From a phage, in the sequence record PV467748.1: a stretch of 64,000 nucleotides of DNA, one strand, 5' to 3'. The position numbers and the translations under genes were made by a program. Within the stretch, counting starts at the first letter, position 1; each line of letters opens with the position of its first letter. Positions 3,141-60,284 of this stretch are shown here, in pieces. The notes under the pieces are model-generated. The model saw nothing but the letters and a program-made list of their open reading frames with translations, was not told where the DNA came from and searched no databases.

Positions 3141-3218
3141 AGTATTTCCTTCAGTTGGTTGGTATTTTGTAATCCATGAGGACATTATACCCTGTCCTCT
3201 GAGGGGTGTAAACATTTT

Positions 3219-3642: not shown

Positions 3643-3672
3643 ATAATATCTTAATCATGGGCCCATGTAAAC
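3643..3672 (-). promoter_or_regulatory. T4 early-type promoter (-35 GTTTAC, 18 nt, -10 TATTAT)
   Basis: Read on minus strand: GTTTACATGGGCCCATGATTAAGATATTAT upstream of the 3219..3617 gene; coordinates approximate. Confidence 0.5.
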
Positions 3673-3961: not shown

Positions 3962-4006
3962 TTGTTTTGATAGGTCTATAGTATCATGTTCTACGAAAGA
4001 GTAAAC
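3962..4006 (-). promoter_or_regulatory. conserved early promoter/leader element, copy 1 (GTTTAC-N17-TACTAT-AGACCTATCAAAACA)
   Basis: Near-identical block recurs at about 7192, 7536 and 42304, each directly upstream of a minus-strand gene start. Confidence 0.55.
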
Positions 4007-7191: not shown

Positions 7192-7235
7192 GTTTTGATA
7201 GGACTATAGTACCATCACTAAAGCCCGTTGTAAAC
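7192..7235 (-). promoter_or_regulatory. conserved early promoter/leader element, copy 2
   Basis: GTTTAC-N18-TACTAT-AGTCCTATCAAAACA on minus strand, upstream of the 6984..7169 gene. Confidence 0.55.
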
Positions 7236-7535: not shown

Positions 7536-7576
7536 TTTGATAGGTCTATAGGCATGATACTATAGACCTTGTAAAC
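7536..7576 (-). promoter_or_regulatory. conserved early promoter/leader element, copy 3
   Basis: GTTTAC ... TATAGACCTATCAAAACA on minus strand, upstream of the internal-protein gene at 7238..7510. Confidence 0.5.
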
Positions 7577-40414: not shown

Positions 40415-41974
40415 ATGAAAAAGAATGCATTAGTTCAAAAATGGTCCGCTCTGCTGGAAAACGAAGCCCTTCCTGAAATCGTGGGTGCTTCTAAACAAGC
40501 TATCATCGCTAAAATTTTCGAAAACCAGGAACAAGACATCCTGACTGCTCCGGAATACCGTGATGAAAAAATCTCTGAAGCATTTGGTTCTTTCCTGACC
40601 GAAGCTGAAATTGGTGGTGACCACGGTTATGATGCTACCAATATCGCAGCTGGCCAGACTTCTGGTGCTGTAACTCAGATTGGGCCGGCAGTAATGGGTA
40701 TGGTTCGTCGTGCTATTCCTCATCTGATTGCTTTTGATATTTGTGGTGTTCAGCCTCTGAATAACCCTACCGGCCAGGTATTTGCCCTTCGTGCAGTTTA
40801 TGGTAAAGACCCTATCGCTGCTGGCGCTAAAGAAGCTTTCCATCCGATGTATTCTCCGGACGCTATGTTCTCTGGTCAGGGCGCTGCTCAGACTTTTGAA
40901 GCACTGGCTGCAAGCAAAGTTCTGGAAGTTGGTAAAATTTATTCTCACTTCTTCGAAGCTACCGGTGCTGCACACTTCCAGGCTGTTGAAGCTGTAACCG
41001 TTGATGCTGCTGCTACCGATGCCGCTAAACTGGATGCTGCTGTTACCGCTTTGATTGAAGCTGGTAAGTTGGCTGAATTGGCTGAAGGTATGGCTACTTC
41101 TATCGCTGAACTTCAGGAAGGCTTTAACGGTTCTACTGATAACCCGTGGAACGAAATGGGCTTCCGTATCGATAAACAAGTTATCGAAGCTAAATCTCGT
41201 CAGCTGAAAGCAAGCTACTCTATCGAACTGGCACAGGACCTTCGTGCAGTACACGGTATGGATGCAGATGCTGAACTGTCCGGTATCCTTGCTACCGAAA
41301 TTATGCTCGAAATCAACCGTGAAGTTATCGATTGGATTAACTACTCTGCACAGGTTGGTAAATCTGGTATGACCAACACCGTTGGCGCTAAAGCTGGTGT
41401 GTTTGACTTCCAGGACCCGATTGATATCCGTGGTGCTCGTTGGGCCGGTGAGAGCTTTAAAGCCCTTCTGTTCCAGATTGATAAAGAAGCAGCCGAAATC
41501 GCTCGTCAGACCGGTCGTGGTGCTGGTAACTTCATCATCGCTTCCCGTAACGTAGTTAACGTACTGGCTGCAGTTGATACTTCTGTAAGTTATGCAGCTC
41601 AAGGTCTGGGTCAGGGTTTCAACGTTGACACAACCAAAGCAGTATTTGCCGGTGTTCTTGGTGGTAAATATCGTGTTTACATCGACCAGTATGCTCGTTC
41701 CGATTACTTCACCATCGGTTATAAAGGTTCCAACGAAATGGACGCAGGTATCTACTATGCTCCGTACGTTGCACTGACTCCGCTGCGTGGTTCCGATCCG
41801 AAGAACTTCCAACCGGTAATGGGCTTCAAAACTCGTTACGGTATCGGTATTAACCCGTTCGCTGACCCAGCTGCTCAGGCGCCTACCAAACGTATTCAGA
41901 ATGGTATGCCTGACATCGTTAACAGCCTCGGTCTGAATGGTTACTTCCGTCGCGTATATGTTAAAGGTATCTAA
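40415..41974 (+). CDS. 23: major capsid protein gp23
   Basis: Long near-identical stretches to T4 gp23 as recalled (QAIIAKIFENQE..., GDHGY.ATNIAAGQTSGAVTQIGPAVMGMVRRAIP). Confidence 0.97.
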   Translation: MKKNALVQKWSALLENEALPEIVGASKQAIIAKIFENQEQDILTAPEYRDEKISEAFGSFLTEAEIGGDHGYDATNIAAGQTSGAVTQIGPAVMGMVRRAIPHLIAFDICGVQPLNNPTGQVFALRAVYGKDPIAAGAKEAFHPMYSPDAMFSGQGAAQTFEALAASKVLEVGKIYSHFFEATGAAHFQAVEAVTVDAAATDAAKLDAAVTALIEAGKLAELAEGMATSIAELQEGFNGSTDNPWNEMGFRIDKQVIEAKSRQLKASYSIELAQDLRAVHGMDADAELSGILATEIMLEINREVIDWINYSAQVGKSGMTNTVGAKAGVFDFQDPIDIRGARWAGESFKALLFQIDKEAAEIARQTGRGAGNFIIASRNVVNVLAAVDTSVSYAAQGLGQGFNVDTTKAVFAGVLGGKYRVYIDQYARSDYFTIGYKGSNEMDAGIYYAPYVALTPLRGSDPKNFQPVMGFKTRYGIGINPFADPAAQAPTKRIQNGMPDIVNSLGLNGYFRRVYVKGI

Positions 41975-41989
41975 TATAAACCTTATTAT

Positions 41990-42018
41990 GGGAGACTTCG
42001 GTCTCCCATTCTTGTTTC
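41990..42018 (+). terminator. rho-independent terminator GGGAGACTTCGGTCTCCC after gene 23
   Basis: Perfect 7-bp stem with TTCG loop, then ATTCTTGTTT. Confidence 0.65.
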
Positions 42019-42022
42019 TATA

Positions 42023-42289
42023 CTATGCAATCTTAACACGATGGTTGATGATATCACGGAAGTCAATACGATTTTCTTGGATTTTCAGCCAGTTACCAGA
42101 TTTGTCTTTGGTATGGGTAGAGTATTCACCGTTCCACCAGAAGTCGGTAGCATAAGCCATGGCTTCGTATTTCTTAACTAGTGCATTCACTGCATTACCG
42201 TTAGGATTGGAACCATATTTTTCTACCAGGGCTTTGATGTCTTTATCAAGAGCGGAAAGAGTAGTACGAATAAAGTTTAACTTGTTCAT
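42023..42289 (-). CDS. hypothetical protein (antisense gene inside capsid cluster)
   Basis: ORF track 42023..42304 trimmed to ATG (MNKLNF...) 8 nt after GAGGAG; own early promoter upstream. Confidence 0.6.
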   Translation of the reverse strand: MNKLNFIRTTLSALDKDIKALVEKYGSNPNGNAVNALVKKYEAMAYATDFWWNGEYSTHTKDKSGNWLKIQENRIDFRDIINHRVKIA

Positions 42290-42303
42290 TTTTAATCTCC
42301 TCA

Positions 42304-42348
42304 TGTTTTGATAGGTCTATAGTAACATGTGATAACCTTGCTGTAAAC
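42304..42348 (-). promoter_or_regulatory. conserved early promoter/leader element, copy 4
   Basis: GTTTAC-N18-TACTAT-AGACCTATCAAAACA on minus strand, upstream of the 42023..42289 gene. Confidence 0.55.
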
Positions 42349-42354
42349 AACTTT

Positions 42355-42362
42355 TATAAATA
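42355..42362 (+). promoter_or_regulatory. T4 late promoter TATAAATA for gene 24
   Basis: Exact TATAAATA about 29 nt upstream of the gene 24 ATG. Confidence 0.6.
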
Positions 42363-42390
42363 AACATATACCCTCAATAAGGAAAGCGCA

Positions 42391-43674
42391 ATGGCAAAGA
42401 TTAACGAATTACTGCGCGAGTCAACAACTACTTCTAGCAACTCATTGGGTCGCCCTAATCTTGTTGCTTTGACCCGTGCTACAACCAAATTGATTTACCG
42501 TGATATTATTGCTGAACAACGTACTAGCCAGCCTATTGCTGCATTGTATGGTGTCAAATATCTTACTCCTGATAATGAATTTAGCTTCCAAACTGGTGCC
42601 GTTTATGGTGGTGAAGTTGGTTCTAAAGACCGTGAAACTATCCCGGAACTCACAGATAAGGCCCAGGCTATTGCCAAGGGTGAATATTTCAAGTATCAGA
42701 ACATAGTTTATAAGGCTCTTCAAGCAAGCCCACTCGCATCCACTAGCGCTACAGGATTGGCTGATGCTCTTCAAGAAGGTTTAGTGTCATTAACATGTCG
42801 TCTGGTTCCGGACGCTGCTCATACCACTAAATTCGAAGCGAGTGATGTAGAAATCTCTGATGCTGTATTCCAGGTAAATAAATGGAATGCTCCTGTTAAG
42901 ACTCGTAAATTGAAGACTGCTTTGACAGTAGAATTGGCACAGGATATGGAATCAAATGGATTCGACGCCCCTGCATTCTTAGAAGACCTCCTGGCTACAG
43001 TAATGGCAGATGAAATTAATAAAGACGTTCTGCAATCCTTGATTACGGTATCTAAACGTTATAAAGTTACCGGTGTATCTGATAACGGCATCATAGATTT
43101 GACTTATGATAGTGCTCCGGAATCTGCACGTAAACTTTATGAAATTGTTTGTGAGATGAATTCTGAAATCCAGAAAACTACTTCTTATTCTGGTACGTTT
43201 GTTGTGGCTTCAAGTCGTGTGGCTGCAATGCTTGCAGGTTCTGGCTGGTTAAAACATAAACCTGAAGATAATAATTGGCTCCCAGAAACCGCCTATGGGT
43301 ATTTGTTGAATGGATTACCTCTGTTCTGTGACGTTAACAGCCCGTTGGATTATGTTATCGTCGGTGTTAAAGAGAACTATGGTGGTAATGAAGTTGTCGG
43401 TTCTATTTTCTATGCCCCGTATACAGAAGGCCTGGATTTAGACGACCAAGAACACGTTGGCGCTTATAAGGTTATTGTCGACCCGGATTCATTACAGCCT
43501 TCTATTTCTCTGATGGTTCGTTATGCACTGTCCGCTAATCCATACACCGTAGCTAAAGACGATAAAGAAGCTCGTGTTATAGATGCAACTAATATGGATT
43601 TAATGGCGGGCCAGAGTAATATGTCTTATCTGCTTGGTGTTAAACTTCCAGCAATTATTTACGAGGCTGATTAA
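42391..43674 (+). CDS. 24: capsid vertex protein gp24
   Basis: 427 aa as in T4; position after gene 23. Confidence 0.85.
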   Translation: MAKINELLRESTTTSSNSLGRPNLVALTRATTKLIYRDIIAEQRTSQPIAALYGVKYLTPDNEFSFQTGAVYGGEVGSKDRETIPELTDKAQAIAKGEYFKYQNIVYKALQASPLASTSATGLADALQEGLVSLTCRLVPDAAHTTKFEASDVEISDAVFQVNKWNAPVKTRKLKTALTVELAQDMESNGFDAPAFLEDLLATVMADEINKDVLQSLITVSKRYKVTGVSDNGIIDLTYDSAPESARKLYEIVCEMNSEIQKTTSYSGTFVVASSRVAAMLAGSGWLKHKPEDNNWLPETAYGYLLNGLPLFCDVNSPLDYVIVGVKENYGGNEVVGSIFYAPYTEGLDLDDQEHVGAYKVIVDPDSLQPSISLMVRYALSANPYTVAKDDKEARVIDATNMDLMAGQSNMSYLLGVKLPAIIYEAD

Positions 43675-44954
43675 TGTCTAAGATTGTAGACCTAATTAAA
43701 GAATCCACATTGACGGCTGCCAACTCGGTTGGCCGTCCTGCTCTTCTTTCATACACCCAAGCAACTAATAAACGAATCTTTAAAGCCTTAGTTGCTGAAC
43801 AAAAAACAAGTCAACCTGTTGCCGCTCTGTACGGGGTTCGTGTACTTAATCCTGATGACAAAATGACTTATCTTGGTGGCGCTACATTTGCAGGCCAGAT
43901 TGGTATGTCGGAACGTGAAAATATTCCTGAATTTACCGATTCGTCTACAGCTTATGCAGCCGGCGATATGTTCCAGTTTGAAAGTGTAGTGTTTAAAGTT
44001 CTGGAAGCATCTCCTTTCGCCGGAACCACAGAAACTGACCTCGGTGAAGTTATTTCTGAAGCAGTGGCTGCTGGGCATATTCGTATGGTATCAGATGCGG
44101 CTATTACTTCTAAATTCGAACAGGGCCATCCTGAAATTGCTGAAGCAGGCTTCCGTATTGATAAGTGGCAGACTGAAGTTAAATCACGTAAACTGAAAAC
44201 TTCATTGACCGTCGAATTAGCCCAAGATCTAGAATCAAACGGGTTTAATGCTCCTAATTTCGTTGAAAACCTGCTAGGCATTCAAATGGCAGAAGAAATT
44301 AATAAGGACGTATTACAGTCATTAATTACGGTGAGTTCTCGTTTTAAAGTCCAGGGTGTTTCCGAAAAGGGTGTATTGGACCTTACCAACCCACGTTACG
44401 ATAATGCTCAGGACCGTGCTCGTACATTGTATTATTACATGTGTGAGATGAACTCTGCCGTACAACGCCAGACTTCTTTCGCTGGGACTTATGCAGTAGC
44501 TAGTTCTCGTTGTGCCGCTATTCTTGCCGCATCTGGTTGGGTTGAGAAAAAGGAAGACCAAGACGAACTGGCTTACGGTATATTAAAAAATGGCCTGCCT
44601 CTTTATGCCGATATGAATAGTCCGTGTGATTATGTTATTGTTGGTGTAAATGCTCAGATGGGTGAAGGACAGACGGTCGCATCTTTATATTATGCGCCTT
44701 ATACGGAAGGTTTGAATGAGGTTGATGAGGAAGGGGATACTTCAGTAGGTGAATTTAAGGTTATTGTTGACCCGGAAAGCTTACAACCTACAGTAGCATT
44801 GCTTGCTCGTTATGCATTGACTGCAAACCCTTATACCGTCGCTAAGGACGATAAAGAAGCCCGCATTATTGATGGTTCTGATATGGACAAAATGGCTAAT
44901 CAAAGTCAATTGAGTTCTTATCTCGGTGTAAAATTACCACCTTTAGAAAAATAA
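43674..44954 (+). CDS. second gp24-like capsid vertex protein (diverged tandem paralog)
   Basis: 426 aa, alignable along its length to the preceding ORF (shared LAQD.ESNGF.AP.F.E.LL, ALSANPYTVAKDDKEAR.ID). Confidence 0.85.
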   Translation: MSKIVDLIKESTLTAANSVGRPALLSYTQATNKRIFKALVAEQKTSQPVAALYGVRVLNPDDKMTYLGGATFAGQIGMSERENIPEFTDSSTAYAAGDMFQFESVVFKVLEASPFAGTTETDLGEVISEAVAAGHIRMVSDAAITSKFEQGHPEIAEAGFRIDKWQTEVKSRKLKTSLTVELAQDLESNGFNAPNFVENLLGIQMAEEINKDVLQSLITVSSRFKVQGVSEKGVLDLTNPRYDNAQDRARTLYYYMCEMNSAVQRQTSFAGTYAVASSRCAAILAASGWVEKKEDQDELAYGILKNGLPLYADMNSPCDYVIVGVNAQMGEGQTVASLYYAPYTEGLNEVDEEGDTSVGEFKVIVDPESLQPTVALLARYALTANPYTVAKDDKEARIIDGSDMDKMANQSQLSSYLGVKLPPLEK

Positions 44955-58130: not shown

Positions 58131-58160
58131 AATAGTACCACATCCTTGTGGTGTTGTAAA
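58131..58160 (-). promoter_or_regulatory. T4 early-type promoter (GTTTAC-N18-TACTAT)
   Basis: Minus strand GTTTACAACACCACAAGGATGTGGTACTAT between the altA stop and the 57813..58103 gene. Confidence 0.5.
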
Positions 58161-60284
58161 CTACATTTTGAATTTATTTGATAAAGAAGAGATATCCAAA
58201 GACGCTGCAAGGATTTCCATAGCTTCGTTGCTTTCAGAAACGGATTCATTAACCAAGAATTGACTAAATCCATCCATCAGGCGAACTTCACCAGTTTCCA
58301 TCAAATGGTCACCATCGTAAACAGATTCGCTGAGCTCTGAAGGAGGTGTTACGGTAGCTTCCATAAGGTATTTGTGAGATACTCTATCATTCATGGCAAA
58401 AGCCGCTACTTTATCAACCTTCAACAATAATCCGCGCGGAAGGATAATTTCTGCTTCTTCGGCATATTCTGTAAGGTCACCAGGAGCGATAACTTTAACT
58501 GCTTCAGCACCTCGAATAACCATACCAATTTCAGCAATTCTATCTGCAGGACCTTCAGGTGCAATTGGATTACCAAACTCGTCTTCTTCCCATTCTACCT
58601 CTTCGTCATCGACTTCACCCACATCAGATGAACTACCACTAGCCAATTTAAACAACTCATCAGCTGAGGACAAAGAACCTTCACCACCAACAAAAACGGC
58701 TTGGTTGTCGAGGGCCATATAATTTTTACCGAATTCACCAAAGATGTTAGGCTTTAATGAGGCTGACACAAAGTTCTTAAAGTAAAATGTTTTGTTATCG
58801 ATATTATGGCGCAGAATTTTGTATGGCAAATCCTGACCACGATACAAAATAGTACCCTTAGGAAGTTTAATACCCTTAGTAAATGCTGAGTCTAAATCCT
58901 TAATCAATTTAATAGCCGTTGTATTGTTTTCGGATTCAGGTTTACCTAAAAGGAATAAGTTCATAGGAGCATATTCAGCCGCGCAATATTCAATAATAGC
59001 ATTGCTTTCGTCTTTGGTTAGGTCCTTAGGTTTAATGAGCTCGCCTGAATAAGCATATGCATCACTAATAGAATCGTTAACCAGTTTATAAACTGCTTCC
59101 ATAGCGAAAGCAATTCGAGAGGCCTTTTCTGAAGGGGAACCCTTAAAACGGGTACTCAGGTTATTAACAATTTTCTTAATAATATCCAGACTATTGGTTG
59201 TATTGATTTGCGAAAGACCACTTAAAAGTCTATCGACTTCTGTATTAAAAAATGCCATATTATTAGAGTAAATTTCAAACCCTTGTTTATCTCTATTAGC
59301 ATAATTTAGTTTAAATTTACTATCAGTCATTAAAGCGTGTGTGAGAGCAATAGTGTATCTAAAGTTGGCAAGGTCCTCGCTCTTAGATTTAAACTGAGAA
59401 GCCTGGCGCATTTTAGTAATAGCACCTTTTTTAAAGTTCTGGCTAATCTGTTCAATACCTTCATTCTCAGGGCCTTCAGCCGTGTGAACAGGTACAGAAG
59501 CTTCAAACTCATTATAAACCTGCAATTCTTTAGGGGACAAAGTTTCAGGTTCGGCAGTAGAATACTGCGCCGCTGCTGCCATACGACGGGAAATCTTAGT
59601 ACGGGTAATGACAGCCTTATCGGTACGTTTCTCTTCAACTTGTGCAATAGATGCCGCTACTGCTTCAACCTTACTTACGGCCTGGCCGGTTTTCTTAGAA
59701 ACATACACTTCGCCAACTTTAGACTCAACTTTAGTATAAAGATCGGCATTAATTTCAGGCATACCCTTGATATCTTCAATATTAGCACCACGACGTACTA
59801 AAAGAACGTAGGTATGTTTTCCGCTGAATTGGAACATGTCGTCAACAACTTTAAACTTACCACCGGTACGAGCCATAGCCAAACGAGCTAATACGCGCTG
59901 AACGGTAGGGCCCTTACCTTTCATTTTCTTAGTAGGGAAACGGAACAGAACTGCGTCCATTTTAAGTTTGTTTATTTGTTCGTATATGGTATCGAAAATG
60001 GTGTTCAGTGTACCAAGTGGATCGGTACCCAACCCGCCCTTGAGTTCTGCCGGAGCGCCTTTAGCTGACAAACTCATCAAAATAACATGAACATATTTGT
60101 CGCCCGGCTTAACCATTTTAATAGCGTCTCCTTGAGACGCATAAGATACCATACGAGCAACCAGATTATCATTACCTGGTGCTTGGATAGAGAAAATCTG
60201 TGGAATACCGGAACCCGGTTTAAGATTTGTTACTGGATAGTTTTTAGCGGAATCACTATCAAAAACCTCATTTAAATTTTCCAT
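58161..60284 (-). CDS. alt: Alt-like mono-ADP-ribosyltransferase, paralog A (packaged and injected in T4)
   Basis: 707 aa (T4 Alt 682); conserved N-terminal about 230 aa; C-terminal R-S-E motifs (YRGQ, SASL, EAE). Confidence 0.85.
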   Translation of the reverse strand: MENLNEVFDSDSAKNYPVTNLKPGSGIPQIFSIQAPGNDNLVARMVSYASQGDAIKMVKPGDKYVHVILMSLSAKGAPAELKGGLGTDPLGTLNTIFDTIYEQINKLKMDAVLFRFPTKKMKGKGPTVQRVLARLAMARTGGKFKVVDDMFQFSGKHTYVLLVRRGANIEDIKGMPEINADLYTKVESKVGEVYVSKKTGQAVSKVEAVAASIAQVEEKRTDKAVITRTKISRRMAAAAQYSTAEPETLSPKELQVYNEFEASVPVHTAEGPENEGIEQISQNFKKGAITKMRQASQFKSKSEDLANFRYTIALTHALMTDSKFKLNYANRDKQGFEIYSNNMAFFNTEVDRLLSGLSQINTTNSLDIIKKIVNNLSTRFKGSPSEKASRIAFAMEAVYKLVNDSISDAYAYSGELIKPKDLTKDESNAIIEYCAAEYAPMNLFLLGKPESENNTTAIKLIKDLDSAFTKGIKLPKGTILYRGQDLPYKILRHNIDNKTFYFKNFVSASLKPNIFGEFGKNYMALDNQAVFVGGEGSLSSADELFKLASGSSSDVGEVDDEEVEWEEDEFGNPIAPEGPADRIAEIGMVIRGAEAVKVIAPGDLTEYAEEAEIILPRGLLLKVDKVAAFAMNDRVSHKYLMEATVTPPSELSESVYDGDHLMETGEVRLMDGFSQFLVNESVSESNEAMEILAASLDISSLSNKFKM

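Follow-up and report, generated by a model that had tools for sequence, protein, structure and literature searches.

A small antisense gene, preceded by a promoter of the T4 early type, lies between the capsid genes 23 and 24 in the phage DNA studied here (sequence record PV467748.1; the whole stretch of 64,000 nucleotides is called the window). It stands back-to-back with the gene 24 late promoter. This had been proposed in an earlier note on the same DNA and was supported by all in-silico tests, namely by selection on the ORF, by the family to which its promoter belongs, by conservation in three genera and by the early RNA of segD in T4. From these sequence features and by analogy with T4, we infer that the ORF is transcribed early in the window phage. 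Judged by genome comparison, the best reading of the locus is an ordinary variable cassette, dispensable and horizontally exchanged, and no new kind of element. It is probably, though by no means certainly, an autonomous early accessory cassette that functions through its protein, which would be made early from a sigma-70 promoter and act on a host or defence target.

The gene and its relatives

The coding sequence occupies positions 42023-42289 on the minus strand with the stop codon included (ATG 42289-42287, TAG 42025-42023), in agreement with the 88-aa minus-strand ORF described before. The GAGGAG ribosome-binding site claimed for it is present as well, at 42302-42297 on the minus strand and 7 nt 5' of the ATG, as read from the sequence. 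A GGAG/GAGGAG Shine-Dalgarno sequence is kept in the orthologues of PhAPEC2 and VR7, and the start is conserved among orthologues as M-[NT]-K. A mechanical ORF list gives a 93-aa version that begins at an upstream in-frame ATG at 42304, and some annotations use this start, too. It was rejected as it overlaps the Shine-Dalgarno sequence, has no such sequence of its own and is missing from the Mosigvirus orthologue.

The length of a reading frame is by itself no evidence for coding in this genome, since a stop-free antisense frame of 460 aa lies opposite gene 23 (40430-41812, minus strand). This frame is almost certainly spurious, since it starts with TTG and has a composition of low complexity, mirroring the codon bias of gp23. 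Long spurious frames of this kind would also be the argument for regarding the 88-aa ORF as a chance antisense reading frame and no gene, a view with next to no probability that the comparative data have already refuted. Against JS10, VR5, Bp7, IME08 and VR7, the dN/dS of the ORF is 0.06-0.26 and the substitutions are biased to the third codon position. Its start, length and Shine-Dalgarno sequence are conserved down to 34% amino acid identity, family members were found in unrelated phages and the structure model is confident. A profile search, which the earlier note had suggested, returned a match to the phrog_6003 HMM over the full length (E = 1.6e-49; ORF residues 1-88 aligned to positions 1-88 of the profile, which has 90), a family that gives no lead to a function. 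It is on account of the third-position bias, the dN/dS values and this full-length match that the ORF was taken as coding, and on these comparisons it is a real protein gene under purifying selection.

The 551 bases around the ORF are 99.6-99.8% identical to Escherichia phages JS98, EcWhh-1, NC-G and MN04, and the window is therefore that of a JS98-like Dhakavirus (Straboviridae, Tevenvirinae). Its gene order equals the one of JS98, with 20-67-68-21-22-23 followed by the minus-strand 'hypothetical protein orf173', 24, a second 24 and the minus-strand rnlB. JS98 orf173 (YP_001595302; phrog_6003, labelled unknown function) is the same gene as the window ORF. The two are 98.9% identical and differ in one residue, H83 in the window and R83 in JS98. 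The same gene was recognised in VR7 as VR7ORF190c (63% identical) and, in fragments, as RB69ORF188c and RB69ORF189c, while the intact Mosigvirus form in PhAPEC2 is 34% identical to the window ORF. Position, orientation, promoter and terminator at the JS98, VR7 and Mosigvirus loci are as in the window, and nothing material differs. As a separate observation, gene 24 (head vertex protein) is present in the window as tandem copies at 42391-43674 and 43674-44954 with 56% protein identity. This duplication is also found in JS98 and VR7; Mosigvirus and T4 have one copy.

With the ORF protein as query, tblastn matched 238 phage records, all with a coverage of at least 80%. The identities fall into tiers of >90% for Dhakavirus, approx. 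61-63% for Gaprivervirus such as VR7 and approx. 34% for Mosigvirus such as PhAPEC2. The amino acid conservation of >90% within Dhakavirus indicates that the gene is not freely lost there. As about 2,440 records with a T4-type gp23 exist, the ORF is absent from most relatives. In every record inspected (JS98, IME08, VR7, PhAPEC2, RB69, JS10, VR5, Bp7 and 310Ecol104PP), it lies in antisense between genes 23 and 24. The ORF is already annotated in JS98, VR7, RB69 and about 230 other genomes and the arrangement is not new. A literature search by locus tags and accessions of the gene gave no match, and a search on 'anti-late RNA' gave irrelevant papers only.

A profile search of 1.84 billion representatives added a few short true members (P0016, P0018, P0019). 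P0017, P0020 and P0022 were rejected, being long repeat proteins whose score is the sum of weak stretches, and so was P0021, which looks like a chimeric contig. The distant members sit in co-directional blocks of small ORFs in unrelated phages or after a tail-fibre gene. The family is thus not bound to capsid genes.

Divergent promoters and a hairpin in common

A T4-type early (sigma-70) promoter was predicted at 42312-42355 on the minus strand from a promoter scan and homologous sites. It has the form GTTTACA-N14-TGt-TACTAT (42348-42319), with GTTTACA as the -35 element at 42348-42342, the TG of an extended -10 at -15/-14 (42327-42326), TACTAT as the -10 element at 42324-42319 and an A-tract, AAAA, at about -43 to -40 (42355-42352). 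Transcription is predicted to start near 42312 on the same strand, from where a 23-nt leader runs on to 42290. Read as TTTACA (42347-42342), a 17-bp spacer and TACTAT, the promoter conforms to the T4/PST early promoter consensus TTTACW-N17-TAYWAT (PMC4122927). No other sigma-70-like site was found in 41800-42500.

The earlier note had spoken of an early promoter/leader element belonging to the ORF itself, and this element turned out to be a real repeated motif. The window contains five matches to GTTTAC-N18-TAYWAT, all of them on the minus strand, with 0.13 expected. For the 17-mer of the -10 and start region, TACTATAGACCTATCAA, six matches with up to three mismatches were counted vs 0.21 expected, and the copy at 3967-3983 on the minus strand is identical. 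The aligned early promoter/leader copies are alike over the whole region from -45 to +15. An A-rich stretch at -40 to -44 is a feature of T4-type early promoters (Nolan et al., PMC1524935). By its sequence, the minus-strand promoter 5' of the ORF belongs to the window's family of T4-type early promoters. Additional copies of the promoter/leader were seen on the minus strand at 3967-3983, 7195-7211 and 7537-7553 and, elsewhere in the window, at 3184-3213, 3643-3672 and 58132-58161. They stand 5' of minus-strand ORFs and are candidate recombination substrates of the PeSL kind, with upstream stem-loops not evident.

The gene 24 late promoter box TATAAATA occupies plus-strand positions 42355-42362 and precedes the ATG of gene 24 (42391) by 29 nt. 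It has 16 copies in the window vs 7.7 expected and is also present in the relatives with an empty site. Its reverse complement makes up the A/T-rich region just 5' of the early -35 element, and the A-rich stretch of the early promoter (approx. -40 to -43) is complementary to the late box and to the four bases in front of it. The distance between GTTTAC, which ends at 42348, and TATAAATA, which starts at 42355, is 6 bp. This fits the previous statement that the early promoter and the gene 24 late promoter lie within about 10 nt of each other.

On the other side of the ORF, a terminator scan located the gene 23 terminator hairpin at 41988-42009 on the plus strand, downstream of the end of gene 23 at 41974. 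It consists of a 9-bp stem and a UUCG loop, ATGGGAGAC-UUCG-GTCTCCCAT, followed by the T-rich tail TCTTGTTTCT. The fold has -15.4 kcal/mol (z = -4.3) on the plus strand and -20 kcal/mol (z = -5.7) on the minus strand. With the hairpin on one side and the late box on the other, the position noted before for the ORF, between the terminator of gene 23 and the late promoter of gene 24, is correct. The minus-strand transcript forms the same hairpin 13 nt past the ORF stop, without a U-tract in the window, and the U-tract is likewise missing from the minus-strand hairpin of PhAPEC2 and T4. The same gene 23 hairpin occurs in the empty-site phage KLB31 and in PhAPEC2. The hairpin of VR7 is truly bidirectional and a strong terminator in the ORF direction. 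An Rfam search of 41800-42500 yielded nothing but one sub-threshold terminator-like match. At the orthologous loci in three genera, there is likewise a TTTACA-17-TAnnAT promoter directly beside the late box, with a hairpin after the ORF stop.

For RB69, this architecture was predicted in 2006. In the additional files of Nolan et al. (PMC1524935), Pe:109605 is entered as a minus-strand early promoter and Pl:109573 as a plus-strand late promoter, and a terminator there bears the label '23-><-RB69ORF188c'. This is the layout that the earlier note described, and it was thus already known.

The missing minus-strand U-tract speaks against a cassette that serves its protein. Without it, the early transcript may read through in antisense into gene 23, which would make a role at the RNA level possible, and this keeps the main rival explanation alive. 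According to this rival, the main effect of the cassette is exerted by its RNA or its promoter and delays or tunes head-gene expression, either by an early promoter that occludes or pre-loads the adjacent gene 24 late promoter, or by read-through past a weak minus-strand terminator, which makes RNA in antisense to gene 23 at its 3' end. The polymerase footprints of two promoters 6 bp apart must overlap, and the divergent pair is kept whatever the cargo, segD or ORF. Such a role is nevertheless unlikely. Many relatives share the late promoter and the terminator and yet have neither the early promoter nor the insert, which implies that head-gene expression needs no early promoter. The strong purifying selection at the protein level is not expected from an RNA-only function, the VR7 terminator is strong in the direction of the ORF and the distant family members are found away from capsid genes.

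A further explanation takes the ORF as incidental and the minus-strand early transcript as a primer of replication or recombination, forming an R-loop at an origin. The geometry, with an early-type promoter directed against a late operon, is similar to the one of T4, where the primer RNAs of oriE and oriG oppose the late genes 5 and 34 (T4 annotation). This is very improbable, given that the T4 record has no origin annotated between 23 and 24, that the ORF is clearly selected as a protein and that the element is missing from many relatives.

States of the 23-24 junction

The extent of the cassette was derived by comparing window positions 41975-42390, a gap of 416 bp, with ACG-C40 and KLB31. 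Relative to phages with an 83-bp gap, the inserted cassette of promoter, RBS and ORF covers approx. 42013-42352 on the minus strand, with approximate boundaries. The empty-site comparison places the insert exactly between the terminator tail and TATAAATA. The 83-bp gap holds only the terminator and the late promoter in Kanagawavirus KLB31 and in the Tequatrovirus phages ACG-C40 and PhiZZ30. A similarly short, unoccupied gap was found in Moonvirus and in Klebsiella phage Roth76. Other occupants are two tiny sense ORFs of 45 and 50 aa in Krischvirus AV108 and, in the Slopekvirus Klebsiella phage Matisse, a SegD-like GIY-YIG gene in sense orientation.

In T4, the gap carries segD, in the same slot and the same antisense orientation as the window ORF. 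A promoter scan gave a candidate promoter for T4 segD at about 107253-107281 of NC_000866 (minus strand). It reads TTTACA-17-TATTAT with a TG, is a homologue of the window promoter and abuts the complement of the gene 24 late box. The UUCG hairpin of gene 23 is situated downstream, again as in the window. The products differ, since T4 SegD is a GIY-YIG nuclease of 223 aa and the product of the window ORF is an unrelated helical protein of 88 aa. With the phrog_6003-family HMM, the best match among T4 ORFs of at least 30 aa (all of T4 except for approx. 2 kb in genes 18-19) had E = 0.33. The earlier note had stated that its reading would fall if T4 had the same gene with a known function at this position; T4 has a different gene there, segD, and the HMM revealed no homologue of the ORF in the T4 sequence covered. 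In the window, the family HMM matched only the ORF itself among ORFs of at least 30 aa and revealed no paralogue. DsbA and AsiA, two small helical early transcription factors of T4, were considered for their size and charge and dismissed as relatives: the dsbA ORF gave E = 4.6 with the family HMM and asiA gave no match.

According to a review of 2010 (PMC2988022), a promoter specific for segD could not be found and its transcripts are probably vanishingly low. Contrary to this, the comparison made here yields a candidate promoter for T4 segD. In a time-resolved omics study of T4 from 2022, segD was classified as 'early-RNA_middle-Protein' and its protein was quantified (PMC9697503, supplementary files 4-6). 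The early segD RNA is consistent with an active homologous promoter. By analogy, these T4 data would be the nearest experimental support for early firing of the promoter socket between 23 and 24.

IME08 combines both types of cargo. Its segD, 56% identical to T4 SegD at the protein level, begins 3 nt past the ORF stop and reaches almost to the shared hairpin, so that early promoter, ORF and segD form an apparent operon. IME341 gave a match in two pieces as in IME08. These arrangements, together with the position and orientation of segD in T4 and the SegD-like gene that Slopekvirus Matisse has in this gap, could speak for an ORF that is part or partner of a homing-endonuclease element and persists by segD-driven gene conversion at the 23/24 junction, be it as helper, immunity factor or target-site carrier for SegD. 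This link is quite improbable. The ORF occurs without an adjoining endonuclease in JS98, the window, VR7 and the annotated Mosigvirus PhAPEC2, while T4 has segD without the ORF. Moreover, the ORF product has no nuclease or DNA-binding domain match, and the distant members in other phages are not beside endonuclease genes.

Broken copies were found in two phages. The RB69 copy differs from the one of PhAPEC2 by two indels, +1 and -1, and is annotated as ORF188c and ORF189c; the cause is either decay to a pseudogene or an error in the old sequencing. In the Tequatrovirus 310Ecol104PP, the cassette is approx. 95% identical to the window at the DNA level, with promoter and hairpin included, and the reading frame is destroyed by two changes of 10 bp each, a deletion and a tandem duplication (GAAAATCCAA). 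The C-terminus of its gp23 shares only 87% protein identity with the one of the window. Taken together, the similar cassette, the more different gp23 C-terminus and the broken ORF suggest a recent horizontal transfer between genera with subsequent decay. The empty gaps and the broken copies speak for a dispensable cassette, and this transfer and the distant family members in unrelated phages for its horizontal mobility.

Protein, proposed mechanism and likeness to mobile units

The ORF product has 10.2 kDa, a pI of 9.4 and a hydrophilic character (GRAVY -0.65), and contains the peptides ALVEK and YGSNPNGNAVNALVK. The orthologues of VR7 and PhAPEC2 have a pI of 9.6, and the values stay between 9.4 and 9.6 over all lineages. 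AlphaFold2, run with an alignment of 11 sequences, gave a model with pLDDT 84 and pTM 0.67, in which residues 3-25, 31-48 and 77-87 are helical and residues 49-76 form an ordered, Trp-rich loop. The product is thus predicted by the model to be a three-helix bundle with a Trp-rich loop. Conserved positions are K3, F6, L14, the NGNxxN turn at 30-35, W51, G65 and Q71. The product had no match in Pfam, noise only in NCBIfam, nothing beyond noise among the curated defence-system profiles of PADLOC and, in a profile search of the PDB, a best E of 0.13. The sequence and fold searches thus returned no informative relative. An identity as Seg (GIY-YIG) endonuclease was rejected on the basis of the missing Pfam and NCBIfam matches and of a protein that is all-helical and only 88 aa long.

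As an autonomous early cassette, the unit would work as follows. Right after infection, host sigma-70 polymerase would start near 42312 at the T4-type early promoter and transcribe leftward. The resulting short mRNA would comprise the 23-nt leader, a strong Shine-Dalgarno sequence and 88 codons, and it would end at the hairpin in common with gene 23 or gain stability from it. The small, basic and soluble three-helix product would act in the cytoplasm early on and presumably bind a macromolecule of the host or of its defence. Its role would be host takeover or counter-defence, useful in some hosts and expendable in others. Later, the early promoter would fall silent like the early promoters of T4. 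The polymerase with gp55/gp33/gp45 would then use TATAAATA 6 bp away and transcribe gene 24 rightward. The two overlapping promoters would be used at different times, and their overlap would have no regulatory effect beyond temporal exclusivity. The same promoter-and-terminator socket would bear other cargo in other phages, segD in T4 and ORF plus segD in IME08.

In sequence terms, the early promoter and the hairpin can be read as a conserved socket with exchangeable cargo (ORF, segD or both). This reading is based on the homology of the T4 segD promoter, the early RNA of segD and the promoter-ORF-segD arrangement of IME08. A more far-reaching and tentative proposal is that the phrog_6003 protein is an uncharacterised early effector and the 23/24 junction an 'expression socket' whose cargo is swapped by recombination. 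The effector may then bind a host protein or nucleic acid via the NGNxxN turn and the Trp-rich loop, and the socket may consist of the shared hairpin and of an early promoter joined to the late box of gene 24.

The cassette resembles the PeSL cassettes (Arbiol et al. 2010, PMC2839356; Comeau et al. 2014, PMC4122927) in several respects. Its promoter is likewise repeated in the genome in near-identical form and matches TTTACW-N17-TAYWAT. It accompanies an ORFan whose presence varies among close relatives, the slot being empty or filled with segD, the ORF or the ORF and segD. PeSL motifs within the conserved core accompany plastic non-essential genes (PMC4122927), and the window cassette is inside the conserved core as well. 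It differs in having no stem-loop immediately 5' of the promoter, where the gene 24 late promoter is found instead. No hairpin was detected between 42349 and gene 24, and the only one, at 41988-42009, is 3' of the ORF. Full PeSL status was rejected, as the defining upstream stem-loop is absent.

The best explanation is a moron-like cassette in a lytic phage. Like the morons of temperate phages, it is a unit of promoter, ORF and terminator between conserved structural genes that is absent from relatives, and it is predicted to be transcribed independently of the surrounding late operon. In contrast to morons, it belongs to a strictly lytic phage, so that it would be expressed early in infection and not from a prophage, and any benefit would fall to the phage and not to a lysogen.

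The family is easily overlooked when early proteins are searched for by their homology to T4. In a screen of early proteins of the Mosigvirus AV110, candidates were picked by homology to T4 early proteins (bioRxiv 10.64898/2026.09.14.751387). As T4 lacks the family, this screen would have missed phrog_6003, and the same holds for T4-homology screens in general. T-even phages have many small early ORFs of this kind, and the importance of the gene beyond annotation is small. The cassette is, however, a clean example of an autonomous early unit inside the most conserved late operon. With its natural empty, occupied, decayed and segD-bearing alleles, the junction offers a convenient slot for comparative and engineering work.
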